Shown in pieces: positions 6,362 through 39,633 of a stretch of DNA of 64,000 nt. Each line of letters starts with the position of its first letter. Position 1 is the stretch's first letter. The notes under the pieces were generated by a model. That model was not told the origin of the DNA. It made no database searches and saw only the letters and a list, made by a program, of their open reading frames with translations. Source of the DNA: an uncultured Ignavibacteria bacterium (lineage in GTDB: Bacteria; Zixibacteria; MSB-5A5; DSPP01); contig CAZSIT010000002.1 in assembly GCA_964607165.1 (NCBI GenBank), positions 46,063 to 110,062 of the forward strand. Reading direction: 5' to 3'. A program made the translations under genes and the position numbers.

Positions 6362-6394
6362 CAAAAAACCAAAGGGCGGGTTTGCACCCGCCCC
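6362..6394 (-). terminator. Rho-independent terminator after dockerin-like gene B1
   Basis: GGGCGGG-tttgca-CCCGCCC stem-loop; on minus strand followed by TTTGGTTTTTTGT. Confidence 0.7.
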
Positions 6395-6416
6395 TTGATT
6401 CGTCTTACTAATGGGG

Positions 6417-6893
6417 CTATGGTCCGCACCAGGGAGGAGCATTTAACCCCAAATAGGTCTTGTTCAGTTCCAAGACCACATCCGCGCTGGTCAAAATCCC
6501 ATCGCAGTTGACATCCGAAAAACAGGCGTCGCAGCTACCAAGTCCCAAATAAGTGCAGTTAAGCAGCAACACCACATCGGCGCTGGTGTAAATATCATCA
6601 AAGTTCATATCTCCTTTAAGCGCAGCACAGGTGGCCTGCCAAAAGCCGATGCCCAGGTTCAGGCCGCCGCCGCTTCCCGCTCCCGACACCGACTGGCCAA
6701 CCGTGTAGCCCAGTTTAAGCGGGCCGCCCGAGCCAAAGCTCGCGCCTCCGCCGTTGATGGAAATCCATTTGAGTTGTGGCAGGGCAAAAGCGGCTCCCGC
6801 CAGCCATACGGTCAGGAAAGCTACAAGAAGCGCAAAAAGGAACAGATGCTTCTTTCTACTTCCTATCAAAGTGGGAACACATTTAGTTGTCAT
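6417..6893 (-). CDS. small secreted protein B1: signal peptide, Gly-rich region, C-terminal Cys-containing dockerin-like double repeat
   Basis: 158 aa; hydrophobic N-terminus; 'DMNFDDIYTSADVVLLLNCTYLG' and 'DVNCDGILTSADVVLELNKTYLG' each fit the dockerin Ca-loop DxNxDGxxxxxD followed by hydrophobic helix; AGGAGG RBS; start overlaps upstream gene by 11 nt. Confidence 0.7.
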   Translation of the reverse strand: MTTKCVPTLIGSRKKHLFLFALLVAFLTVWLAGAAFALPQLKWISINGGGASFGSGGPLKLGYTVGQSVSGAGSGGGLNLGIGFWQATCAALKGDMNFDDIYTSADVVLLLNCTYLGLGSCDACFSDVNCDGILTSADVVLELNKTYLGLNAPPWCGP

Positions 6894-8298
6894 CTCCTCC
6901 TCCTGCGTTCTGGCCTTGTTTAGTCGCCTCTTCCAGCTTTTTCAGGCGGGCCTCTATTTCGGCCCGCTCGGCCCGTATCTGGGCCAGTTCTTCATCAAGG
7001 CGGGCCTGATTGGCGGCGATAGAGGCAGCGCGCTCCGCTTCCACATTGAACGCTCCCGATACCTGGGCATCTTCATTCGGATGTTGCGGGCTGGGGAAGG
7101 CAAAACCTCCATACGCCGTCGGGAAATAAAGAACGGTGATCTTAGCCAATCCAGCCGTTACTGCCCCGTTAAAAGGGACCTGGGACATAAGCAGAGTATA
7201 GGTAAAGGGACCCGCTGCCGGTATGGGCCGCGTGATTATTCTCACTTGGGTCTGGTCCGAAAACCCATCGGCGTCACCGGCATCCCAGCTCCAGGTTGCC
7301 ATTATGGGACCATTTTCAGTCAGTGCGCACGGTAAGGCATTGTTGGGGGCAGCGAGAGCAACGGAAAACTGCGCCTCACAGATTATTACGGCAAAGCCGG
7401 CCGCCGGGGCCACCAGCGTGATGCCAGCAAAAACTGGCCCAAATCCGCCTGGGACGGGAACACCTAACGGTCCAGCCGGACTGGCAACAAGCCCCGGTTC
7501 GTCAAACGATTCGATGGAAGAAATGGAACCTCCCGGAACCACCACGGCGCCGTTGCTGCTCGCATCGGCATCTATGCTGACGGTTACCGCATTGACGTCG
7601 TTTGTCATCGAAAGCAAAGAGCCGCCACCAGTCACCCCACCCTGCAAGCTGATTCCGGGGCTGCCGTTATCTTTTTTAAGCAGGAGGGTTCCTCCTGCAC
7701 CAATAACATCTCCGGCTAAGTCCACCGTTAAAACGTTACCGGCTGTATTATCCCTAAGCCAGATCTCTCCATAAAGCGTTCCACCCATCTCGACGTTCCG
7801 CTTTCCATCGGCACCAATGACATAAAGGTTGTTATTGGCTGCATCAGTCTTTATGGCTAGGGTTTCAGGAGCAAATGTGCTTCTGACCTCCAGACCGTTC
7901 GCCACGCGGCTATACGGTGCGCTGATTAACTGGGTGCGGGGACTTATGATGTTAAGATCCACTTCGACTTCCAAATAAACCGAGTCGTTGTTTATAAATA
8001 CATCTGTCGGTATGGGGTCAAGGATGGGGTCAACCGAACCCAATTGATGGGTAAACAAGCCGCCCGCATCGGGGGTAATGCTCTTGGTTTCATCCCAGAG
8101 AAGCCCTCCCGCCGCTGGCAGCGTGTAAAGACGGAAGATAAAAGTATGCGGCGAGCCACCCAGAGGATTGCCCAAAGCATCGGTCAGCTTCCCCTGAAAG
8201 TTGACCAGGTTGGGAACGGACGACACGTTCGCCGCCTGGGTGAATCCAACCAACAACGCAGCGGTCAAAACCACTGCCAAAAGAAAAATGCGTTTCAT
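6883..8298 (-). CDS. secreted Gly/Ala/Thr-rich protein A1 with conserved N-terminal 'NFQGKLTDxLGNPL' module and C-terminal coiled coil
   Basis: 471 aa; signal peptide; motif 'VNFQGKLTDALGNPL...FRLYTLPAAGG..LW' shared with A2 (9072..10478); C-terminal heptad-like 'LDEELAQIRAERAEIEARLKKLEE'; GGAGG RBS. Confidence 0.65.
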   Translation of the reverse strand: MKRIFLLAVVLTAALLVGFTQAANVSSVPNLVNFQGKLTDALGNPLGGSPHTFIFRLYTLPAAGGLLWDETKSITPDAGGLFTHQLGSVDPILDPIPTDVFINNDSVYLEVEVDLNIISPRTQLISAPYSRVANGLEVRSTFAPETLAIKTDAANNNLYVIGADGKRNVEMGGTLYGEIWLRDNTAGNVLTVDLAGDVIGAGGTLLLKKDNGSPGISLQGGVTGGGSLLSMTNDVNAVTVSIDADASSNGAVVVPGGSISSIESFDEPGLVASPAGPLGVPVPGGFGPVFAGITLVAPAAGFAVIICEAQFSVALAAPNNALPCALTENGPIMATWSWDAGDADGFSDQTQVRIITRPIPAAGPFTYTLLMSQVPFNGAVTAGLAKITVLYFPTAYGGFAFPSPQHPNEDAQVSGAFNVEAERAASIAANQARLDEELAQIRAERAEIEARLKKLEEATKQGQNAGGGDDN

Positions 8299-8530
8299 TG
8301 CTTATTCCTCCCGTTTTTTTGGGTTTTTTACTTGCTGTCCGCCTTTACGGCGGACAGCGTTTACGCTTGTGCCGTTAAATCAGAAGATTTGCTTTCCAGC
8401 GGTGCCTCCTTTCGTTGCCTGCCAATCCGAAAAAAGTCCTAAAAGCTATGTAACTACAAGTCACCCGGCAATCCCCCCACAGAACTGCCGTTTAAGAGCC
8501 ATATTCAAAATACCCCTTGGTCAGCCCTTA
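8299..8530 (-). promoter_or_regulatory. conserved ~230-nt leader/promoter region (copy 1) with perfect palindrome CTGTCCGCC-tttac-GGCGGACAG
   Basis: Near-identical to 10479..10715 over several blocks although downstream CDSs have diverged; palindrome at ~8337..8359. Confidence 0.55.
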
Positions 8531-8552
8531 GTCAAGCTTTTTCGGGGGCTGG

Positions 8553-8584
8553 AAAATAAAAAGGGGCGGGTTTTCACCCGCCCC
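8553..8584 (-). terminator. Rho-independent terminator after dockerin-like gene B2
   Basis: GGGGCGGG-ttttca-CCCGCCCC; minus strand followed by TTTTATTTTCC. Confidence 0.7.
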
Positions 8585-8606
8585 TTGGATGTTTTTGCGC
8601 TTGCCT

Positions 8607-9062
8607 TTACGGAGGTCCGCACCAGGGAGGAGCACTTAGCCCCAGAAAGGTCTTGTTCAGTTCCAAGACCACATCCGCACCGGTCAAAATATTGTCGCAG
8701 TTAACGTCGGCAAAGCAGACGTTGCAGTTGCCGAGTCCCAAAAAGGTGCAGTTAAGCAGCAACACCACGTCGGCGCCGGTGTAAATGGCGTCGTGGTTCA
8801 TATCCCCTTTACTGGAGCCGCAGGTTCCATACAAATATCCGGCATAGTTGTAGTAATTGGCGCTGTTTCCCACTCCAATCGGCGTGCTTTGAGCGGCGAT
8901 GGTCACCGGCTGCCGGCGGTTAGCCGAGCTCATCGCTCCCCCGGAGTTGGAAAAGGCCTGGCGCGGAATCTTATAGTTGGCGCTGGACATCTGGGCGGAG
9001 GTTTCTCCAGCTAACCAGCCGAACCCTAAAACTCCGCATAGAAAGATTAATACCTTTCGCAT
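8607..9062 (-). CDS. small secreted protein B2 (paralog of B1) with C-terminal Cys-containing dockerin-like double repeat
   Basis: 151 aa; 'DMNHDAIYTGADVVLLLNCTFLG...DVNCDNILTGADVVLELNKTFLG...PPWCGPP'; AGGAGG RBS 5 nt upstream of ATG. Confidence 0.7.
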   Translation of the reverse strand: MRKVLIFLCGVLGFGWLAGETSAQMSSANYKIPRQAFSNSGGAMSSANRRQPVTIAAQSTPIGVGNSANYYNYAGYLYGTCGSSKGDMNHDAIYTGADVVLLLNCTFLGLGNCNVCFADVNCDNILTGADVVLELNKTFLGLSAPPWCGPP

Positions 9063-9071
9063 TGTTTCCTC

Positions 9072-10478
9072 CTACTCTCTTGGCTGTCCAATTTGCGGCG
9101 TTTCCGGGCCAGGAGTGGCGACCGGCAGAGCAACAGGGACATAAAGGGCTGAAGCGATAGCACCGGGATACAAGTGGATTGCAAAGCCGCTCCCGGCATT
9201 ATCAGCGTTCAGATAAAAGGTAACCGCTCCAGGTCCTCCAACCGGAACCACCCGGACGAGCGAAAAACCGTGCGTGGAATTAAAGCCGCTGGTGGCATCG
9301 GCATCCTGATAATAGCGGTCGATATAAGTTCCGCCGCAGGTAGCACTGGAAGCGGGGGTAGTGCACAATCCCATATCAAAACTGACGGTTAAGGAAGCGA
9401 CACCAACGGCGTCCGCATCGTACCACCATTGGCCGGAGACGTTGAGCCATAGAACGCCAGCCGCCGGCACGGTCACGGTAAAAGAAGTGAGGGTGGCCGG
9501 TACGGGGCTTACGGTGAGGGGGGCAGGCAGCAGTACGGAACCGGCCGCCGCTTTTGCGTCGGGGCCGAGCTCAATGGCGCTGATGGCGTTCGCGGGCAGA
9601 ACGGCCGAAGCATTCCCAGCCACCCCGCCATCCAGAGTGATGGTGGTTGCACTGGCGCCGTTTGTCAGGTTGAGGGTGCCGCCACTACCGGTGGTGCCGC
9701 CATAGAGAGATGCCCCTGGGGTGCCACTCTCTTTGTTCAAATTTAAACTCCCTCCAACCGGGCAGGCAAGACAACCACCGTCGAGGGTGGCTGAAATGTT
9801 TCCCGCACCAGCTCCGTTCACGAAGTCCGCTCTCCCATTACCGAGCCCATTTGGGGTTAGAGCGATAACATTACCTGAGAATGAAAAATCCAAACCGAGC
9901 GTGCCATACATAACGTCCCCGGCCCTCTTAACGTAGTCGCCGCTGGTCAGCCCACCCAGCCGGTCGGCATTAATGGCATAGGCCACGCTGGTAATTTCCT
10001 GCCGGGGAGTCATTTCCAGCGCTTCCGTCGTGACCTTAACCCCCAGATAGCGGGGTATGCCATCAAACAGGTCGGCCGGGAAAGCCGGCCCCGTACCTAA
10101 CGGGACGTTGTAAAAGCCATCCGCATCCGGCGTTACAGGGGTGGATTGCGGCCCCCATAAAAGCAGCGCGCCTCCCCCCGGCCCGTCGTAGATTCTGAAT
10201 TCCAAGGTGGTCATCACGGTAATCGGCGCCCCCAATGTGTTGGTCAGTTTCCCCTGATAATTGATGGTGGCAGGCACCACCAAGCTGGCTCCCTGGCCTG
10301 TTCCGGCGGCAGGCGGCTGAATCACCACACCCGGCGGTAGGTCATTGACCCGCGAGGTGAGCGGCTGAACCACCCCACCCCGCGGTTGGTCCGCGGCCTG
10401 CAAACTGCCCCCTGCTGTCAGTAAAAAACTGAACGCTAAAACAGTTAGCGTTAAAGCTGGTAAAAAAGAACGTTTCAT
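9072..10478 (-). CDS. secreted Gly/Ala/Thr-rich protein A2 (paralog of A1) with N-terminal 'INYQGKLTNTLGAPI' module
   Basis: 468 aa; signal peptide; same N-terminal motif and compositional bias as A1; 9-nt gap to B2. Confidence 0.65.
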   Translation of the reverse strand: MKRSFLPALTLTVLAFSFLLTAGGSLQAADQPRGGVVQPLTSRVNDLPPGVVIQPPAAGTGQGASLVVPATINYQGKLTNTLGAPITVMTTLEFRIYDGPGGGALLLWGPQSTPVTPDADGFYNVPLGTGPAFPADLFDGIPRYLGVKVTTEALEMTPRQEITSVAYAINADRLGGLTSGDYVKRAGDVMYGTLGLDFSFSGNVIALTPNGLGNGRADFVNGAGAGNISATLDGGCLACPVGGSLNLNKESGTPGASLYGGTTGSGGTLNLTNGASATTITLDGGVAGNASAVLPANAISAIELGPDAKAAAGSVLLPAPLTVSPVPATLTSFTVTVPAAGVLWLNVSGQWWYDADAVGVASLTVSFDMGLCTTPASSATCGGTYIDRYYQDADATSGFNSTHGFSLVRVVPVGGPGAVTFYLNADNAGSGFAIHLYPGAIASALYVPVALPVATPGPETPQIGQPRE

Positions 10479-10715
10479 TGCTTACTCCTCCCGTTTTTTG
10501 GATTTTTTGATTTCCTGTCCGCCTTTACGGCGGACAGCGTTTACGTCTTTTGGTGATAAAATTAAAAGATTCGCTTCTCCAGCGCTTCCTCCTTTCGTTG
10601 CCTGCCAATCCGAAAAAAATCCTAAAAGCAAAGCTATGTAACTACAAGTCACCCGGCAATCCCCCCACAGAACTGCCGTTTAAAAGCCACTTAAAAAATA
10701 GGCAGGTTTCCTTTT
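10479..10715 (-). promoter_or_regulatory. conserved ~230-nt leader/promoter region (copy 2) with the same CTGTCCGCC-tttac-GGCGGACAG palindrome
   Basis: Blocks 'ttcctcctttcgttgcctgccaatccgaaaaaa' and 'ctatgtaactacaagtcacccggcaatccccccacagaactgccgtttaa' shared with copy 1. Confidence 0.55.
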
Positions 10716-28318: not shown

Positions 28319-28380
28319 TTTCTTGTAGGGGCACAACATGTTGTGCCCTTCCCCAATCGAATTCGTATATTCCCTCCGTT

Positions 28381-28453
28381 TGGGGCGTAGCCAAGCTGGT
28401 AAGGCACGGGACTTTGGATCCCGCACGCCCAGGTTCGAATCCTGGCGCCCCAG
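28381..28453 (+). tRNA. tRNA-Gln (anticodon TTG)
   Basis: TGGGGCGTAGCCAAGCTGGTAAGGCACGGGACTTTGGATCCCG...GGTTCGAATCCTGGCGCCCCAG; closely parallels bacterial tRNA-Gln (5' U1, D-loop AGCTGGTAAGG, anticodon loop CUUUGGA); CCA not encoded. Confidence 0.8.
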
Positions 28454-28461
28454 TTAAAACA

Positions 28462-28499: not shown

Positions 28500-28615
28500 A
28501 GGTTCGCCTGCCCGAGCCCCTGGCCGGTGAGAGGAGCGGGGAGAACGGGCAGGCGTGGCCTCTTGCTTCGGCCAGGGAATCCTGGCCCCCCTGTTATTAT
28601 TTTTCTTGGGCAATA
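28500..28615 (+). other. structured intergenic segment: 10-bp stem CGCCTGCCCG...CGGGCAGGCG enclosing a 40-nt motif also present inside msrBA, then a GGCCAGG-gaat-CCTGGCC hairpin with T-rich tail
   Basis: Read directly from sequence; the second hairpin resembles both an intrinsic terminator and a degraded tRNA T-arm/acceptor 3' end. Confidence 0.4.
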
Positions 28616-28700
28616 CGAAAATACGGCGCGGAACTTTTTTTGCTGCCGTTGAGGTTTAATAAACCGCAAACCAATAACCCAAAACCAGAGGAGGTTCAAA

Positions 28701-29888: not shown

Positions 29889-30680
29889 ATGAAAATGTTG
29901 AACGTGGTGCGGGCGGCGGCAAAACTTTTTTTAGCTTTTAGCCTTCTGGCGTCATCGAGCGCTCTTAAAGCGCAGGGTTTGACGGGGAAAAGCTTTACCG
30001 GACAAAGTTTCAAAACGAGTGCTTTTGTACTTCGCCTCGATTACGGGCGCGACGACTCGGATAGCGAAAATTCCCCGCAAGCACCGGCGCCGGCCGTCAA
30101 AAAGATTAAAACACTTTCTTTTAAAGGCGGGCCAAGAACTTCCTGCAAGTGGTTCTTAATAACTGAGAACGGTTTCGCAGCTATAACGGGCCAGCGCCCC
30201 GAATTATCGCTGCAGCGGAGTACCCGTGTTCACTGGGAGTGGGGGTTGATGAAAAACGCTGGCGAGCGGTATGCTGTGGGGGGCGCTTTTTACGTCAGTT
30301 TTGAGGCGGAAGATGACCGGGGATTTTTATTTGGCTTCAAGCCGAGATTTCGATACTGGCTCACCCGCCGCTTCACCGCCGACTTTGCCCCGGGGCTGCT
30401 TTTTGCCCAGTCCGGAAACGTCCAAACTTCCTACAAGGCGAGCTTTCCCGGTTTTGAAGGGCACGTTGGGCTTGGCTTCGCGGATTGGGTAAGTTTGAGC
30501 CTTCATTTGGAATTACTCCATCTGGAGCCGAAGTTCAGCTATCAAAGTTACGCCCCTCCAATACCAACTCAAAAAAATTGGTATATAGGAATAACTTTCG
30601 GCTCATATCCCGGCGCAATTTTAAGCCCGATTAGCGGCGCTTTGGCTGTGTTGGCACACGCAATTGCCTTAGCCGATTGA
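29889..30680 (+). CDS. hypothetical secreted protein
   Basis: Signal peptide 'MKMLNVVRAAAKLFLAFSLLASSSALKAQ'; beta-rich; no recognisable domain. Confidence 0.4.
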   Translation: MKMLNVVRAAAKLFLAFSLLASSSALKAQGLTGKSFTGQSFKTSAFVLRLDYGRDDSDSENSPQAPAPAVKKIKTLSFKGGPRTSCKWFLITENGFAAITGQRPELSLQRSTRVHWEWGLMKNAGERYAVGGAFYVSFEAEDDRGFLFGFKPRFRYWLTRRFTADFAPGLLFAQSGNVQTSYKASFPGFEGHVGLGFADWVSLSLHLELLHLEPKFSYQSYAPPIPTQKNWYIGITFGSYPGAILSPISGALAVLAHAIALAD

Positions 30681-30740
30681 TATTCAGCAAGTCCCTTCTC
30701 GCTACTACCCCAACAACTGGGAAAAGGGGATGTTAACCAT

Positions 30741-30795
30741 TGGAAATCTTTCTAAAATACTTGGAACAACCTTTGCCCCTTTCCGGTTATTGGCG
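30741..30795. repeat. ~50-nt repeat copy 1 (shared with 34335..34390)
   Basis: 'ggaaatctttctaaaatacttggaacaacctttgcccctttccggttattgg' vs 'gataaatttcttcaaaaaacttggaacaacctttacctatttccggttattgccgg'. Confidence 0.6.
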
Positions 30796-30803
30796 CGGAG
30801 AAA

Positions 30804-32663
30804 TCAGGATTTGCTATCTTTTGTCTTTTTGACCCAATCTCTGACCATTTGTTCAAGGATATTCAAAGGCACCGCCCCGCTGCCCAAAACCAAATCGTGA
30901 AAAGCGCGAAGGTCAAACTTCTCCCCCAAATCCTTTTGCGCCGCCTCGCGTAATTCCTTGATTTTCAACTGGCCGATTTTATAGGCCAAGGCCTGCCCGG
31001 GCCAAACAATGTAACGGTCCACCTCCACCGTAATGTCGTGTTCGGCCTTGCCGACGTTTTGCGTAAAGTAATCGATCGCCTGCTGGCGGCTCCAGCCCTT
31101 CCAGTGCATCCCCACGTCCACCACCAGGCGGATGGCCCGCCACATTTCGTAGCTCAACTGCCCAAATTTGGAATAAGGGTCTTGATAAAAGCCCATTTCG
31201 TATCCCAAACCTTCGGCATACAACCCCCACCCTTCTCCGTAGGCGGTGTACCAGCCCCAGCGCCGGAATTCCGGCAGGTTTTCCAACTCCTGCGCTATGG
31301 AGCCCTGCAGATGGTGACCGGGAACGGCTTCGTGCAGGGTTAAAGGTTCCATTTCCCATTTGGGGCGGGATTTCAAATCATAGGTGTTGGCATAAAAGTA
31401 TCCGGGACGGCCGGCTGCCAGCGAGCCGGGCTGGTAATAGGCGGTGGTCTGCGATTTTTCCATATACTCCGGCACCGGCTTCACCCCGTACGGCAGGCGG
31501 GGCAGATGCCCGAACAGCTTGATTAACTCCGGGTCGGCCCGCTTGCAAATATCGCGATAGGATTCCAAAAGGTCCTCCGCTTTCGAAAAGAAAAACTGCG
31601 GGTCAGTGCGCAAAAAGTCGCAAAATTCGGAAAAACTCCCTTTGAAAGCGGTTTCGGCAATTACCTTGTCCATTTCCCCGCGTATGCGCTTAACTTCGCT
31701 TTCCCCCAGGTCGAAAATTTGTTCCGGGGTCATCGCCGTGGTGGTGTAGGATTTGGCCTGATAGGCGTACCATTTTTTCCCGTTGGGAATATCCGACAGG
31801 CCGATGCTGGTCCGGCAGCCGGGGAGATAGGTCTTTTCGAGATAGGCGGCCAGCGCTTCAAAAGCTGGGACGATTTGGCCGGTGTATAGCGAATGCGCTT
31901 CCTTGCGCAACTCCTCCTGCTTCGCCGTTGGAATGGTGTTTGGAAAGGTTTTGAAAGGGGTCAGCATCGGCGCTTCGGCCGGGTCCTTTACGATTTGATC
32001 TCTGACCTGCTGGGGAACGTCCCGCAGGGTAATCTGCGGCGGCGTAATCCCCTCTTTCAAACCGCGCTCCAAAAGCACCCGCACCTGGCCGGTCAAAGCG
32101 GGAACCGCTTTCAGCCGGGCCAGAATATCCTGATAATCCTTCACGGTGCCAGACGGCATAACGGCGACCAACTGGGGGATATCCTGCTGCACGCCGTTCA
32201 ATTGCGTAAGGGGGGTCAGTTCGGCGGGAAATTCCGCCCCTTCGATGTCAAGCGAGGTTTTGTCCTTGAAAAGGTCGTAATTGAGTTGGTCTTGGCTGGA
32301 AAGTTTCTCTTTGGAAATAGAGTTTAAAACCTCGATAATCAGGGGGGATTCTTTTTTGCGTCTTTCTATGGCGGCAAACGACATATCGGTCAATTTGTCG
32401 TTTAAGCCGGGATAGCCGATGAAGGTGGCGAACTCCGGACTTTCCTCCATCCCATGCTTCCAGCACAAATCAAAAAGCTGGTAGAGCCGCGCGGAGTCGG
32501 CGACTTTTCCTTTGGATTGGGCGAGGTTGGCACAGCTTTTTTGGAAACTGGTCATCTGGTTTTGGGCGGAAGCCGATAGAGGGAGTACCAACATTGAGCT
32601 AAGCAATGCTACTGCGATTCGTTTTTTCGATGGCCATTTCATTCCAGCCCGCAAAGTATACAA
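30804..32663 (-). CDS. DUF885-family secreted putative metallopeptidase
   Basis: 619 aa; signal peptide; 'LHEAVPGHHLQ' HExxxGH motif typical of DUF885. Confidence 0.6.
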   Translation of the reverse strand: MYTLRAGMKWPSKKRIAVALLSSMLVLPLSASAQNQMTSFQKSCANLAQSKGKVADSARLYQLFDLCWKHGMEESPEFATFIGYPGLNDKLTDMSFAAIERRKKESPLIIEVLNSISKEKLSSQDQLNYDLFKDKTSLDIEGAEFPAELTPLTQLNGVQQDIPQLVAVMPSGTVKDYQDILARLKAVPALTGQVRVLLERGLKEGITPPQITLRDVPQQVRDQIVKDPAEAPMLTPFKTFPNTIPTAKQEELRKEAHSLYTGQIVPAFEALAAYLEKTYLPGCRTSIGLSDIPNGKKWYAYQAKSYTTTAMTPEQIFDLGESEVKRIRGEMDKVIAETAFKGSFSEFCDFLRTDPQFFFSKAEDLLESYRDICKRADPELIKLFGHLPRLPYGVKPVPEYMEKSQTTAYYQPGSLAAGRPGYFYANTYDLKSRPKWEMEPLTLHEAVPGHHLQGSIAQELENLPEFRRWGWYTAYGEGWGLYAEGLGYEMGFYQDPYSKFGQLSYEMWRAIRLVVDVGMHWKGWSRQQAIDYFTQNVGKAEHDITVEVDRYIVWPGQALAYKIGQLKIKELREAAQKDLGEKFDLRAFHDLVLGSGAVPLNILEQMVRDWVKKTKDSKS

Positions 32664-32766
32664 CTATTTGCGCCGCTTGCGCAAGGCCAAAATCGCCTTG
32701 GAAGAAGCCAGTGACCCTGACCGGTCAGGGAGTCCTGGCACCCCGGAAATTTTTTGAAAACTGGGC

Positions 32767-32795
32767 TTGACAAAACCGAAAGCCCCGGCTATACT
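32767..32795 (+). promoter_or_regulatory. near-consensus sigma-70 promoter (TTGACA-17 nt-TATACT) for AT-rich gene 32999..34171
   Basis: cTTGACAaaaccgaaagccccggcTATACTgac; downstream 5'UTR contains hairpin gggatgtgaggattcgcatccc and an AGGAGG RBS. Confidence 0.55.
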
Positions 32796-32998
32796 GACCC
32801 CGAAAGATAAGCCCGTGGATTCGGGCTGAATGAAACCGCAGGTGCGGGAAGAAAGGAGAGATGAAATGGATTTTACATGATTTTAGTTTTAGCGGCTGCA
32901 ATGAAATTTATGCAGCTTTTTTTATTTGACGAAAACGGGATGTGAGGATTCGCATCCCATAAACTGAAAACCGAAACTCCATTAGGAGGAAGGAAAAA

Positions 32999-34171
32999 AT
33001 GAAATCTATATTCTTAAGAACCGAATTTAACCGTCGTTTCCCTGATCCTCTAAACAAGTCCGACCAAGATGAGCCCACAAGCATCGAGCACTATATTTTA
33101 CTTTGCAGAGCTGTAGATATACCGCCAGGTATTCCGACGGCTCCAAATCCAAGGGAACAAGACACAGATAAAACAATCTACCAGGAAGTCAAAAAAAGCC
33201 TTCTGAGCGAAGCCGATCCTACTTTTCATCTTAAGAACAAGGGGATTACAATTATCGCTCACAAGGTGGACTATAGCAACCATAAAGATGGTTTAGAAGT
33301 TTTCTTCAATGAAGACGATGGTATAGTCGATGGTGCCCACACCTATACAATCATAGTCGACAACAAGGATGAGTGCCCGCACAATCAATTTGTTAAACTG
33401 GAAATATTGACAGCCATTCCGAGGTCCTTTGTCGAACCCATTGCGCAGGGTCTAAATACTGCTGTGCAGGTACAAACTATGAGTCTGGCCAATCTTGGCA
33501 AAAGGTTCGAATGGATCAAAGAAATCTTGAATAAAACACCATACGCTTCAGAAATTGCCTACAAAGAAAACGAGGACGGTGAATTTACCATTAGAGATAT
33601 CATCAGCTTAATGACTCTTTTTAATATTGAGTCATATCCTGATGGTTCTACCCATCCTAAGGTTGCTTATGTTAGCAAAGCGAAAGCATTGGAAGATTAT
33701 TTAAAAAGCCAAAATTCATTTGAAAAATTGTCGCTGATACTAAAGGACATCTTAGAACTTCATGATTATGTCCATTTAAAAGGACGGGGGCTCTATAACG
33801 AAAAATATAAAGGGAAAGGTGGAAGGTTGGCATTCTACCAAACTCGGAAGAAAGGATATAGGCTCGTATTCACAAGAAAGGAAACACCAAGCATGCTGTA
33901 TGACGGTGCACTTTATCCCATTTTGGGTGCATTCAGATACCTCGTGGGACAAAAACCCGGCAACGGCCATTTTTCTTGGAAGGTCGGCTCTTTTGAGGAG
34001 GTCAAAAAAATATTTGACAAGGTTGGAGCTGACATGATTAACTCAACTAAAGGCAAAAGCGATAGCACTGGCAGAAATCCAAATGCTATCGGCAAAGATG
34101 ATGGCCATTGGGAAAATCTGTACAAAACTGTTGCCCTTGCTTACTTTGAAAATAACAGAGCTAAAAACTAA
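32999..34171 (+). CDS. hypothetical 390-aa protein in AT-rich islet (possible abortive-infection/defence-type gene; no confident family)
   Basis: Low-GC gene flanked by high-GC core genes, own strong promoter and terminator; weak resemblance of 'GIVDGAHTYTI' to AIPR-type motifs is not sufficient for assignment. Confidence 0.3.
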   Translation: MKSIFLRTEFNRRFPDPLNKSDQDEPTSIEHYILLCRAVDIPPGIPTAPNPREQDTDKTIYQEVKKSLLSEADPTFHLKNKGITIIAHKVDYSNHKDGLEVFFNEDDGIVDGAHTYTIIVDNKDECPHNQFVKLEILTAIPRSFVEPIAQGLNTAVQVQTMSLANLGKRFEWIKEILNKTPYASEIAYKENEDGEFTIRDIISLMTLFNIESYPDGSTHPKVAYVSKAKALEDYLKSQNSFEKLSLILKDILELHDYVHLKGRGLYNEKYKGKGGRLAFYQTRKKGYRLVFTRKETPSMLYDGALYPILGAFRYLVGQKPGNGHFSWKVGSFEEVKKIFDKVGADMINSTKGKSDSTGRNPNAIGKDDGHWENLYKTVALAYFENNRAKN

Positions 34172-34186
34172 TAAAAACGCAATTAA

Positions 34187-34225
34187 TAAGAAGCCCCGCC
34201 TGGAATGGGCGGGGCTTCTTATTCT
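34187..34225 (+). terminator. terminator-like hairpin after islet gene
   Basis: AAGAAGCCCCGCC-tggaat-GGGCGGGGCTTCTT followed by ATTCTGG (weak U-tract). Confidence 0.5.
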
Positions 34226-34332
34226 GGAACAAAAGCGACTCGCGTTCAGTTAAAAATAGAAACGGCGCGAATGTCGGTAAGCAAGGAATAACATTAGCGG
34301 GGTAATTTTTGCCCTATGTAAAGGAGAAAAAA

Positions 34333-34395
34333 ATGATAAATTTCTTCAAAAAACTTGGAACAACCTTTACCTATTTCCGGTTATTGCCGGTATGA
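34333..34395 (+). other. 20-codon upstream ORF (MINFFKKLGTTFTYFRLLPV) with AAGGAG RBS, stop overlapping msrBA start (ATGA); lies within repeat copy 2
   Basis: aaggagaaaaaaATGataaat...ccggtATGAaaaca; the uORF TGA overlaps the ATG of the 34392 gene. Confidence 0.35.
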
Positions 34396-35408
34396 AAACA
34401 ACAATTATACTATTGGCGTTGGTGGTAGGTATTATAGGGGTTTTTGGGTTGGTTTTGTCGCAAGGAACAAAGAAGAAGGAGGATAGTAACAAAGTGACTT
34501 ACAATAAGTTGACCCCCGAGGAGGAGCGGGTAATCGTGCGCAAGGGCACGGAGATGCCCTATACCGGCAAGTATTACGATTCCCACGACAAGGGAACCTA
34601 CACCTGCAAACGCTGCGGGGCGGTGCTCTACCGTTCGGACGACAAGTTCGATTCCCACTGCGGCTGGCCCAGCTTTGACGACGCCGTTCCGGGGGCGGTC
34701 AAGCAGGTGCCGGACGCCGATGGCCAGCGCACGGAGATTTTGTGCAACCACTGCGGCGCGCACCTGGGGCACGTTTTTACCGGGGAAGGTCTCACTTCCA
34801 AAGACACGCGCTATTGCGTAAATTCAATTTCTATGAGCTTTATCCCGGCCGGAGCCGGCGTATCCCCTGGCCGAGGAGTGGAGCGGGGAGAACGGGCAGG
34901 CGAAACGAACGGTAAGAGTCAAACCAAGACGCAAAAGGCCTATTTTGCCGGCGGATGCTTTTGGGGAACGGAGTATTATTTAAAGCAGGTCAAAGGGGTA
35001 ACGGACGTGAAGGTCGGCTATATGGGTGGGAAGAAGAAAAACCCGACCTACCGGGAGGTCTGCAACGGGAACACCGGGCACATTGAGGCCAACGAGGTGA
35101 CTTTTGATCCGACCAAGACCAGCTACGAGGAAGTGGCCAAGTTATTTTTCGAAATCCACGACCCGGCGCAGGTGAACCGCCAGGGGCCTGACGTCGGGGA
35201 ACAGTATAAGTCGGTGGTTTTCTACGCTAACGATGAGCAGAAACATACGGCGGAAAAGCTGATTGGAATTCTGAAGAGCAAGAGAATACCGGTGGCGACG
35301 GAGCTGCGCCCGGCAACCGAGTTCTGGGTGGCGGAGGATTATCATCAGGATTACTACGCCAAAACCGGCAAGGAGCCGTACTGCCATCATCGGGTGAAGC
35401 GGTTTTAA
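34392..35408 (+). CDS. msrBA: bifunctional peptide-methionine sulfoxide reductase MsrB-MsrA fusion with N-terminal TM helix
   Basis: MsrB zinc CxxC pairs ('CKRCGAVLY','CNHCGAHLGHVF') and 'RYCVNS'; MsrA 'FAGGCFWGTEYY'; linker contains the 40-nt motif shared with 28511..28560. Confidence 0.85.
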   Translation: MKTTIILLALVVGIIGVFGLVLSQGTKKKEDSNKVTYNKLTPEEERVIVRKGTEMPYTGKYYDSHDKGTYTCKRCGAVLYRSDDKFDSHCGWPSFDDAVPGAVKQVPDADGQRTEILCNHCGAHLGHVFTGEGLTSKDTRYCVNSISMSFIPAGAGVSPGRGVERGERAGETNGKSQTKTQKAYFAGGCFWGTEYYLKQVKGVTDVKVGYMGGKKKNPTYREVCNGNTGHIEANEVTFDPTKTSYEEVAKLFFEIHDPAQVNRQGPDVGEQYKSVVFYANDEQKHTAEKLIGILKSKRIPVATELRPATEFWVAEDYHQDYYAKTGKEPYCHHRVKRF

Positions 35409-37851: not shown

Positions 37852-39329
37852 AATTCCTGATTGTATCGCCGACATCCGAACTCTGCGATAAACTAACCGC
37901 CGCCGCTCACCCATCCGAATGGGAATTTGTCTTTGCTTTTAGAGCGGCCGAAGCGCTGGGGGCTTTAAGGTCGGAAAAATTTGCGGCGGTGATATTCGAC
38001 GCCGCCGTTCCCGATTTGGATCCGCCGCGGCTGATGAAGAAAATTCTGCAAAAAGAGCCGGGCATAATACTTGTCGCAGTCGCCCCGGCCCAGCAGCTTT
38101 CCCTTTTTCAGCAGGGGCTCTTCTTTCAGTCCGTCGAAGCATTTCCCAAAGAAGGGAGCGGCGAAGAATTAGTAGCCCTCTTGGAAGAGTCGCTCAAAAT
38201 CCAATCGGTTTTAGAAAAGGCCGGCATCGTCGGCAAATCCCGCGCGCTGAAAAAAGTTGCCCTCGAAATTTTGGCCGTCGGCCCGACCGATTTGACCGTT
38301 TTAATCAGCGGCGAGAGCGGCACCGGCAAGGAATTGGTGGCAAAGGCAATCGCTGAAAATTCCCCGCGCGCAAGTAAGCCGTTTTTAGCCTTCAACTGCG
38401 GCGCTTTTGCCGAGGGGGTTTTGGAATCGGAACTCTTCGGCCACGAGCGCGGCGCTTTCACCGGCGCGGTAGCGCAGAAAAAGGGAGTGTTCGAGCTTGC
38501 TTCCGGCGGTACGATATTTCTGGACGAAATCGGCGAAATCTCCGCCGCCACGCAGGTCAAGTTGTTGCGCGTACTTGAAGAAAAGGCCTTCTTCCGCGTC
38601 GGCGGCAAGGAGCAGATTACCGTGGATGTACGGGTCCTTGCCGCCACCAACCGGGATTTGTCCGCCGCCGTCGCCGAAGGAAAATTTCGTTCCGATTTGT
38701 ATTACCGGCTCGGCGTGGTGAAAATCGAGCTGCCTCCGCTGCGGGAACGTCCCGAAGACATTTCGCTTCTAATTTTCCACTTCTTGAATCAACTGAAAGC
38801 GCAAAATCCAAATTTGAAAACCGAAGTTTCCGAAGGAGCGTTGGAAGAGCTTTCGCGCGCGCTGTGGCAGGGAAACGTGCGTGAGTTAAAAAACTTCATC
38901 GAAAGCCGGGCTTTGCTTTCCCCTTCGCGTACTATCACCGCCGAAGAGGTGCGGGAGCATCTGGCCCGCGCCAGTGCCGCCGACCGCAAGTTGCCGGTGA
39001 CGACCGGTAAGACGGTGGAGACCGCCGAGCGGGAGCTTATCTTTCAGGCCTTAGTCCGGCTTTCGCAGGAAGTCCGGGAATTGAAAGAGTTGTTTTTGGC
39101 GCGCGGCTCCGCCCCGGCGGAATGGCGCTTCGACCGGGGAGGCGAAGTTTTGCCGGGGAAGGAAGTTACCCCGGGAACGCAATCACTGGAAAGGATGGAA
39201 AAAGAAGTTATCGAGCGCGCTTTGCGCGAGGTCGGCGGCAACCGCAAAAAAGCCGCCGAAGTTTTAGGCATCGGCGAACGCACCCTCTACCGTAAAATCG
39301 ACCAGTATGGGTTGAGGAAAAATCGATAG
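37848..39329 (+). CDS. sigma-54-dependent Fis-family transcriptional activator (receiver-like N-domain, AAA+ core, C-terminal HTH)
   Basis: Walker A 'GESGTGKE', 'ESELFGHERGAFTGA' GAFTGA motif, C-terminal 'AAEVLGIGERTLYRKIDQYGL'. Confidence 0.85.
   Translation: MKFLIVSPTSELCDKLTAAAHPSEWEFVFAFRAAEALGALRSEKFAAVIFDAAVPDLDPPRLMKKILQKEPGIILVAVAPAQQLSLFQQGLFFQSVEAFPKEGSGEELVALLEESLKIQSVLEKAGIVGKSRALKKVALEILAVGPTDLTVLISGESGTGKELVAKAIAENSPRASKPFLAFNCGAFAEGVLESELFGHERGAFTGAVAQKKGVFELASGGTIFLDEIGEISAATQVKLLRVLEEKAFFRVGGKEQITVDVRVLAATNRDLSAAVAEGKFRSDLYYRLGVVKIELPPLRERPEDISLLIFHFLNQLKAQNPNLKTEVSEGALEELSRALWQGNVRELKNFIESRALLSPSRTITAEEVREHLARASAADRKLPVTTGKTVETAERELIFQALVRLSQEVRELKELFLARGSAPAEWRFDRGGEVLPGKEVTPGTQSLERMEKEVIERALREVGGNRKKAAEVLGIGERTLYRKIDQYGLRKNR
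39264..39320 (+). repeat. direct repeat copy 1 (3' end of sigma-54 activator gene)
   Basis: ttaggcatcggcgaacgcaccctctaccgtaaaatcgaccagtatgggttgaggaaa; copy 2 at 39559..39624 differs by 2 substitutions plus a 9-nt insertion. Confidence 0.75.
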
Positions 39330-39330
39330 T

Positions 39331-39633
39331 ATGAAATCGAATACTATTCGGAAGAATAAAAGCGGAACGGCCCGAGCCAAGGAACATTCCGGCTTGCTTC
39401 CTTTTACCTGCCTTTTCAAAAAAGAGAAAGGCGGCTATGTTGTCCGCTGCGTGGAATTGGACATCACCTCGCAGGGCGATACCTTGAAACAGGCCAAGGA
39501 AAACATCAGAGAAGCCATAAATCTGTATTTGGAATGTTACAAACCTCCGGCCAAAAGTTTGGGCATCGGCCCGCCGCAGGCGGGCACCCTCTACCGCAAA
39601 ATCGACCAGTATGGGTTGAGGAAGGGAAGATAA
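39331..39633 (+). CDS. HicB-like (UPF0150) antitoxin-fold protein whose last 18 codons duplicate the C-terminal HTH tail of the upstream sigma-54 activator
   Basis: 'YVVRCVELDITSQGDTLKQAKENIREAINLYLE' matches the HicB/UPF0150 core; C-terminus 'LGIGPPQAGTLYRKIDQYGLRKGR' encoded by repeat copy 2; no hicA-like ORF adjacent. Confidence 0.55.
   Translation: MKSNTIRKNKSGTARAKEHSGLLPFTCLFKKEKGGYVVRCVELDITSQGDTLKQAKENIREAINLYLECYKPPAKSLGIGPPQAGTLYRKIDQYGLRKGR
39559..39624 (+). repeat. direct repeat copy 2
   Basis: ttgggcatcggcccgccgcaggcgggcaccctctaccgcaaaatcgaccagtatgggttgaggaag. Confidence 0.75.

Follow-up and report, generated by a model that had tools for sequence, protein, structure and literature searches.

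Tandem GGAAC-N18-GTT motifs in front of msrBA in a Zixibacteria-like genome: a candidate ECF-type promoter inside an upstream open reading frame

The window, the whole 64-kb stretch of DNA analysed here, carries msrBA, a gene in which the methionine sulfoxide reductases MsrB and MsrA are fused, together with a short upstream open reading frame (uORF) and a repeat of which one copy (copy 2) lies within the uORF and the other (copy 1) lies 3.6 kb upstream. The features of this region are listed below; P1 and P2 denote the two GGAAC-N18-GTT motifs in front of msrBA.

28380-28454: tRNA-Gln gene, followed in order by a SnoaL-like lipoprotein gene, a glyoxalase-family gene, a 292-aa gene without known function (end at 30680) and copy 1
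30741-30795, plus strand: copy 1, a partial duplicate of the msrBA leader covering uORF codons ~3-18
30804-32663, minus strand: DUF885 gene (Pfam DUF885, E=4e-183), with its stop codon abutting copy 1
32999-34171, plus strand: AIPR-family gene (Pfam AIPR) in a segment of 38-42% GC
34185-34223: strong hairpin terminator with a 16-bp stem, closing the AIPR gene
34226-34251, plus strand: P1, the second GGAAC-N18-GTT, directly after the AIPR terminator, recognised from the motif match and from relatives
34321-34326, plus strand: Shine-Dalgarno sequence AAGGAG of the uORF, 6 nt before its ATG
34333-34395, plus strand: uORF of 20 codons, MINFFKKLGTTFTYFRLLPV, with ATG at 34333 and TGA at 34393-34395
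34357-34382, plus strand: P2, the GGAAC-N18-GTT inside the uORF, with GGAAC at -35 to -31 and GTT at -12 to -10 from the A of the msrBA ATG
34392-35408, plus strand: msrBA (MsrB-MsrA fusion; Pfam SelR and PMSR), followed on its 3' side by an RNase R gene and then by a sigma-54 activator gene

The SelR (MsrB) and PMSR (MsrA) matches confirm the assignment of the downstream gene as msrBA, which the preliminary description of this DNA had made from the sequence alone. The RNase R protein has its best named relatives in candidate division Zixibacteria, with 77% identity. Close relatives of the locus were gathered by exact-protein look-ups of the closest MsrBA homologues having upstream DNA. The comparison set consists of the window and eight further lineages in which msrBA is not fused to upstream sequence (L004, L008, L010 and L092 to L096), and L011, in which it is fused, is treated apart. 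The eight related metagenomic lineages are probably Zixibacteria. MsrBA identity to the window is 87% in L004, 80% in L008/L009, 79% in L094, 78% in L093, 77% in L092, 76% in both L095 and L011, 74% in L010 and 65% in L096.

In the common layout, a minus-strand DUF885 gene is oriented divergently from msrBA; L004, L008, L010 and the P0003 contig have it annotated. L092 and L094 have partial minus-strand genes upstream of msrBA with the same intergenic DNA, and these are probably DUF885 genes too. The DUF885 gene of the window lies between the two repeat copies, unlike that of the relatives, which is the conserved divergent neighbour of msrBA. A low-GC insert at 32670-34225, carrying the AIPR gene and its terminator, lies between the DUF885 promoter region and P1; homology to the relatives ends at about 32670 and resumes at about 34320. 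The hairpin at 34185-34223 insulates the msrBA control region. The AIPR family is abortive-infection-like. Its site is occupied by a Ser/Thr kinase gene in L004 and by nothing in L008 and L010; insertion at this spot may have happened repeatedly. The divergent intergenic space of L004 measures 71 nt in all, with P2 inside it.

The N-terminal transmembrane anchor of MsrBA (..GVFGLVLSQG) is conserved in the relatives, and the first 22 codons of msrBA show coding periodicity across them. Since the anchor is conserved with this periodicity, the ATG at 34392 is, on comparative grounds, the real start of msrBA and the long form of the protein is real. A public NCBI record starts msrBA at the GTG at 34494 (304 aa, P0001), thereby dropping the membrane anchor (34392-34496), and the msrBA genes of several relatives have been shortened likewise by gene callers.

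The uORF stop overlaps the msrBA ATG as ATGA, and there is no Shine-Dalgarno sequence before 34392. The 20-codon uORF with its AAGGAG and its ATGA overlap is thus present as the preliminary description had read it. Its own Shine-Dalgarno sequence and ATG, the overlap and the missing Shine-Dalgarno sequence of msrBA are the sequence features of a coupled uORF. As for the repeat, a 33-nt core, CTTGGAACAACCTTTnCCnnTTTCCGGTTATTG, matches the plus strand of the window at 30760-30792 and 34354-34386. Two matches were found against 0 expected by chance (none in 100 shuffles), so the earlier report of a repeat pair 3.6 kb apart holds for both copies; a third match with up to 3 mismatches was not found in the 64-kb window. 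Ungapped similarity between the copies extends over 63 nt (30744-30806 against 34338-34400) with 78% identity, and the final ~10 nt of it are native DUF885 3' flank, which is found in the relatives too.

The preliminary description had centred on the uORF peptide. The repeat core at its heart is real, but the part of it that is conserved is GGAAC-N18-GTT at -35/-12 and not the peptide. When the upstream regions are aligned without gaps and anchored on the msrBA ATG, the position of P2 and the 18-nt length of its spacer are fixed in all nine non-fused lineages, with the letters of the spacer varying freely; these lineages are related, and the count does not stand for nine independent events. 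The only invariant blocks in the eight closest lineages are GGAAC.A.C and GGTTAT.G.CG.TATG, and the 13 columns between them contain no conserved position. L096 keeps GGAAC at -35 and GTT at -12 in upstream DNA that is otherwise about 50% identical. The start codon of msrBA is ATG, never GTG or TTG, and lies exactly 9 nt after GTT in 9/9 lineages, the 5' end of the mRNA at this position being a prediction. GGAAC-N18-GTT has three matches in the window, which are P1, P2 and copy 1, and the longer GGAAC-N18-GTTA has 3 matches against 0.34 expected. The motif outlives the uORF: it is present where the uORF is interrupted by two stop codons (L092) and where it is startless (L093, L094 and L095).

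A homologous frame with the identical ATGA overlap is found 5' of msrBA in the relatives, but an ATG with a Shine-Dalgarno sequence at the homologous position is present in only three of the nine lineages, namely the window, L008 and L010, and the peptide is not conserved. The Shine-Dalgarno equivalents of L008 (AAGGAAA) and L010 (AAGGAAGGG) are purine-rich. The start position reads GGT in L093, AAG in L094 and AAA in L095; the frame of L092 is broken by two stops; that of L004 opens at a different ATG, which has no Shine-Dalgarno sequence; and L096 has the ATG without a Shine-Dalgarno sequence, and its stop comes earlier. Entropy by codon position is 0.69/0.70/0.77 in the uORF frame as against 0.41/0.23/0.77 in the first 22 codons of msrBA, and differences by codon position number 189/181/202 in the uORF as against 128/69/233 in msrBA. 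Consistently, synonymous and nonsynonymous codon differences among the window, L008 and L010 stand at 5:24 in the uORF and at 17:16 in the msrBA anchor. The uORF peptide evidently evolves without coding constraint and has no conserved sequence of its own. As the substitution pattern shows, the apparent ..GT....LL.. conservation of the peptide is that of the GGAAC and GTTATTG blocks of the putative promoter, translated in frame.

These observations bear on the suggestion in the preliminary description that the uORF is a leader-peptide attenuator. The uORF shares with the trp, thr and his leader attenuators a short ORF 5' of the regulated gene, but it has no run of regulatory codons, no space, no alternative hairpins and no conserved structure. 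Its stop overlaps the start of msrBA and so leaves no room for terminator and antiterminator hairpins, its peptide is unconserved, and in most relatives it is startless or interrupted. A search of the leader for conserved RNA structure found none (consensus -3.8 kcal/mol, no covariation, fold z = -0.53). An Rfam scan of 30400-34800 gave no match on either repeat copy; 13 weak matches were all below threshold, and 8 of these 13 lie on or beside the terminator at 34185-34223. The sub-threshold matches to leader families (Thr_leader and others) all fall on the AIPR terminator hairpin and not on the uORF. The attenuator interpretation was therefore abandoned.

The second motif, P1, has a homologue, GGGAACAAAA(A/G)C...GTT, at -129 to -135 in L008, L010, L092, L094 and L095. 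The spacer is exactly 18 nt and GTT is invariant in every P1 and P2, and the base 9 positions after the GTT of P1 is a purine in all six lineages that have P1. Corynebacteria prefer a C directly before GTT, where the motifs here have G or T. With respect to P1 and to the means of translating msrBA, the nine lineages fall into three groups.

Group 1 (window, L008, L010): P1 present; uORF with Shine-Dalgarno sequence and ATG present; GGAGG before msrBA absent
Group 2 (L092, L094, L095): P1 present; uORF with Shine-Dalgarno sequence and ATG absent; GGAGG before msrBA present
Group 3 (L004, L093, L096): P1 absent; uORF with Shine-Dalgarno sequence and ATG absent; GGAGG before msrBA absent

All six lineages with P1, and no others, carry either a uORF with a Shine-Dalgarno sequence or GGAGG in front of msrBA. 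The GGAGG of L092, L094 and L095 lies 11 nt before the msrBA ATG in just those lineages that have lost the start or the frame of the uORF, so that loss of the uORF correlates with gain of GGAGG; the switch from uORF to direct Shine-Dalgarno sequence was probably a single event. The six lineages without GGAGG are also without a Shine-Dalgarno sequence for msrBA. From this distribution we infer that the P1-capable lineages each have a means to translate msrBA from a long transcript and that the lineages with P2 alone have none; the latter would need no Shine-Dalgarno sequence because their mRNA would be leaderless, if P2 acts as predicted. Since the P1 lineages alone carry the uORF with a Shine-Dalgarno sequence or GGAGG, the uORF is probably a coupling device for the longer transcript, and it probably operates as such in the genome of the window. 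What would matter is the existence of the uORF, not the sequence of its peptide. Thus, of the roles proposed in the preliminary description, that of a coupling device fits the pattern of Shine-Dalgarno sequence, ATG and GGAGG across the lineages, but the repeated and conserved part is the motif rather than the peptide.

The reading that we favour, with a probability of roughly 0.6, is that the repeated core is a proximal promoter of msrBA of the type recognised by ECF sigma factors, that P1 is a second promoter of the same kind and that the uORF provides coupling for the P1 mRNA. In Corynebacterium and mycobacteria, the sigma E/sigma H consensus has been defined experimentally as GGAAC-N18-19-GTT with C at -31, and this promoter class includes transcripts with leaders of 0 and 1 nt (PMC10012870). 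P2 has the GGAAC at -35 and the N18-19-GTT of this ECF class. The core letters and the 18-nt spacing are the same as in the sigma E/H/R-type promoters of Corynebacterium, Mycobacterium and Streptomyces (GGAAC or GGAAT - N18-19 - GTT), and placing C at -31 puts GTT at -12 to -10 and the transcription start 9 nt later, at the A of the msrBA ATG. In contrast to the actinobacterial promoters, the host here is Zixibacteria-like, the base before GTT is G or T and not C, and no cognate sigma or anti-sigma factor was found. The sigma E/H/R regulons of these actinobacterial genera are stress or redox regulons that include msr genes. To our knowledge, the promoters of Zixibacteria are uncharacterised.

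According to the favoured reading, transcription from P2, with GGAAC at -35, an 18-nt spacer and GTT at -10, would begin at the A of the msrBA ATG. This promoter geometry therefore predicts a leaderless mRNA for the membrane-anchored methionine sulfoxide reductase. P1, of the same type and about 130 nt further upstream, would yield a longer mRNA with a predicted start near 34261 and a leader of about 72 nt containing the uORF. On this longer mRNA msrBA would have no Shine-Dalgarno sequence, and ribosomes would be delivered to it by the uORF, stopping on the msrBA start as ATGA. The arrangement resembles coupled overlapping ORFs that work by termination and reinitiation in its Shine-Dalgarno sequence, its ATGA overlap and its downstream gene without a Shine-Dalgarno sequence. 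It differs from them in that the uORF has only 20 codons, its peptide is unconserved, relatives have swapped it for a direct Shine-Dalgarno sequence, and it holds a second predicted promoter, so that only part of the mRNAs would carry the uORF.

A parallel for ECF control of such a gene is known from Neisseria, where msrA/msrB are under ECF sigma control, as is also mentioned for Caulobacter; in Neisseria an envelope-associated fused Msr is a principal target of sigma E, which has a very small regulon (PMC2893595). The window has in common with the Neisseria system a membrane- or envelope-associated fused methionine sulfoxide reductase, but the Neisseria promoter motifs, GTMAGBWTT and CGTCTAAH with a spacer of 12-13 nt, are unlike GGAAC-N18-GTT, and a uORF is not described there. 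A tblastn search of the window found no ECF sigma gene. The one ECF sigma gene near msrBA in L010, 5 kb away from it, has no GGAAC-N18-GTT upstream.

Other promoter types were also considered. A sigma-54 promoter (TGGCAC-N5-TTGC) was rejected: copy 1 alone fits TGGNAC-N5-TTGC, for which 0.66 matches are expected by chance, and the -12 position reads TTAC in copy 2 and CCGG, TAAT or GGTC in the relatives. A sigma-70 scan gave a single weak match (9/12), overlapping the msrBA start. The sole other near-match to the ECF-type motif in the window is GGAACTTTTTTTGCTGCCGTTGAGGTT (GGAAC-N19-GTT) at 28630-28656, some 45 nt upstream of the SnoaL-like lipoprotein gene. The orthologous region of L011 does not preserve it, and it may be a chance occurrence. 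The motif matches in the window and the ECF sigma locus of L010 do not outline a regulon.

The same data can be viewed with the uORF itself as the functional unit: transcription of msrBA would depend on an upstream promoter alone and its translation on termination-reinitiation alone, and the conserved blocks would constrain reinitiation or the nascent peptide. The strong Shine-Dalgarno sequence, the ATGA overlap and the lack of a Shine-Dalgarno sequence for msrBA all agree with this, as do the retention of the uORF ATG and Shine-Dalgarno sequence in L008 and L010, the occurrence of GGAGG in exactly those lineages that lost the uORF start, and the fusion of the same peptide to MsrBA in L011 with mostly third-position differences over 12 codons. 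However, GGAAC, 35 nt before the ATG, plays no part in reinitiation but is nevertheless invariant, even at synonymous positions, and the peptide changes freely while GGAAC stays. Furthermore, L004, L093 and L096 keep the motif with neither a credible uORF start and Shine-Dalgarno sequence nor a Shine-Dalgarno sequence for msrBA, and L092 keeps it despite two stops in frame. We therefore regard the uORF as sole functional unit as improbable.

Decidedly less probable still is that the bipartite motif is an operator, with AAC...GTT half-sites for a DNA-binding regulator that overlaps the msrBA start. AAC-N18-GTT is palindromic, and P1 in the relatives is a longer imperfect inverted repeat (GAACAAA-N12-TTTGTTC in L092), as would be expected of such a site. 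The two arms are nevertheless unequal: the left one is always GGAAC, and the right one is GTTAT in P2 or GTT(T/C/A)N in P1, never GTTCC. In a hand analysis, moreover, the axis of symmetry of the longer inverted repeat in P1 is offset by 1.5 nt from that in P2, and the fixed -35/-12 position relative to the start codon is what a promoter predicts.

The promoter reading may also be set against the fused form of the gene. In L011 (1324-1423), MsrBA carries the counterpart of the uORF in frame as a positively charged N-terminal tail, MRNFLKKLGTNFRLSDL..., MRNFLKKLGTNFRLSDLMGGLKR..., and GGAAC and GTT have decayed. The differences between L011 and the window in the first 12 codons are mostly at third positions (0:2:6 in a hand count), as would be expected of a segment that has become coding. 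The uORF could also be what a frameshift has left of an ancestral N-terminal cytoplasmic tail of MsrBA, with no function of its own, and both its conservation and the existence of copy 1 would then be accidental; L011 encodes MRNFLKKLGTNFRLSDL-MGGLKR... as a single protein, and other relatives have N-terminal tails before the membrane anchor. A neutral remnant, however, would not fix GGAAC and GTT in nine lineages amid a changing spacer, which makes this account very unlikely. Since the more distant L096 is already split and motif-bearing, the fusion in L011 is more likely the derived state, in which the uORF was captured as an N-terminal tail, a polarity that rests on few lineages. A word-indexed search with the fused N-terminus of L011 gave no candidates.

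Beyond the close relatives, a metagenome scan by N-terminal MsrBA alignment yielded, among the matches listed, only distant relatives with 62% identity or less. None of the distant msrBA loci among these matches had the uORF peptide, and one (L047) of the 80 more distant loci had GGAAC-N18-GTT upstream. The motif of L047 (1099-1124) is accompanied by a normal 22-nt leader containing AGAGAAAGG, and its identity over the N-terminal query is 64%.

Copy 1 comes immediately after the DUF885 stop codon and is oriented so as to read into DUF885 in antisense. It keeps an intact GGAAC-N18-GTTATTG at 30763-30792, and the nine positions at which it differs from copy 2 all lie outside the GGAAC and GTTAT blocks, with one of them in another invariant column. 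It is open in the frame of the uORF, within an ORF at 30730-30900 (...NLSKILGTTFAPFRLLA...) that runs antisense into the 3' end of DUF885, and has a possible degenerate Shine-Dalgarno sequence, AAAGGGG. Its minus strand has a weak terminator-like hairpin directly after DUF885. Copy 1 shares 82% identity with copy 2 and just as much with the leader of L093, so that it is an old duplicate or else the leader of a related allele. The DUF885 3' flanks of L004, L008 and L010 contain no equivalent of copy 1. Since the gene content to the left of DUF885 is different in each lineage, copy 1 stands at a synteny breakpoint; this position and its absence from the relatives mark it as a duplicated promoter fragment, that is, by sequence comparison, a lineage-specific piece of the leader at a rearrangement breakpoint.

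A chimeric assembly was considered as the source of copy 1 and rejected, since copy 1 and DUF885 do not join at a shared repeat; the same arrangement is also seen in a JGI contig that is stored independently (sample 3300010391, the same or a related sample). The tRNA-Gln, SnoaL and msrBA genes are adjacent in L011, suggesting that copy 1 marks a former junction of the SnoaL-side genes with an msrBA leader. It is plausible that the DUF885...msrBA block later recombined in at this junction. The promoter motif in copy 1 may or may not fire antisense to DUF885; if it does, transcripts would begin near 30798 and cover the 3' end of DUF885 in antisense.

The preliminary description had also offered the view that the repeat is a small dispersed one that created the uORF by accident. 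A more explicit form, not part of that description, has the copies as ends of a mobile element flanking an inserted 3.6-kb block. The copies are indeed direct repeats that flank DUF885 and the low-GC AIPR gene, and other short duplicated segments occur at gene junctions in the window. The copy number, however, is two per 64 kb in the window and one per relative locus, always in front of msrBA, and the adjacency of DUF885 and msrBA is ancestral rather than the result of an insertion. A wider search for the repeat found one chance-like match, in Ulvibacter, among 185,579 species genomes, and 16 matches among viral contigs, no more than we roughly estimate for chance; the flanks of these 16 are random beyond the letters that the query fixes. 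There are no terminal inverted repeats, no structure and no integrase, and a REP, a MITE and an att site were each rejected. This view did not survive and is now scarcely credible. Most likely, judging from the sequences, the repeat pair consists of a promoter-bearing msrBA control region and one stray extra copy. The repeated element is of an ordinary kind and neither a new repeat family nor a sensing leader peptide.

An extended form of the promoter reading would link all of these features: the tandem ECF-type motif would give rise to a leaderless and a uORF-dependent msrBA mRNA, the lineages would swap among coupling, a Shine-Dalgarno sequence, promoter-only expression and the fusion of L011, and copy 1 would act as an antisense promoter switched on by stress, so that induction of msrBA goes along with a lowering of the DUF885 peptidase. 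Taken as a whole, this extension is speculative and doubtful. The element does not represent a new class and joins known kinds, namely an ECF-type promoter, a leaderless start and ATGA coupling. If the favoured reading is correct, the locus gives a first view, at sequence level, of alternative-sigma promoters and leaderless expression in the uncultured phylum Zixibacteria, and adds to the cases in which an envelope methionine sulfoxide reductase is under ECF control. The locus would also illustrate how initiation devices, including uORF coupling, a Shine-Dalgarno sequence, a leaderless start and an N-terminal fusion, are exchanged over short evolutionary distances. The main value of the locus lies in its clean comparative pattern and in a caution about conserved uORFs: what looks like a conserved uORF peptide can be an in-frame promoter, and codon-position statistics across relatives tell the two apart.

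The window contains several other repeats. A 39-nt repeat with 92% identity and a 23-nt exact core (0 expected) occurs at 28517-28555, just downstream of tRNA-Gln, and at 34864-34902, in the MsrB-MsrA linker of msrBA. The latter copy is an in-frame extra segment (GAGVSPGRGVERGERAG) that is missing from a relative, P0002, which is 87% identical. A 40-nt direct repeat with 98% identity lies at 39280-39319 and 39584-39623. The next ORF, which encodes 100 aa (39331-39633), ends with the same codons as the sigma-54 activator (..GTLYRKIDQYGLRKNR), and it looks as if an insertion of about 300 bp has duplicated the 3' end of the sigma-54 activator, its target gene. At 6363-10700, three tandem units about 2.19 kb apart have intergenic and terminator segments that are 80-94% identical, and these units are probably tandemly duplicated gene pairs with conserved control regions.
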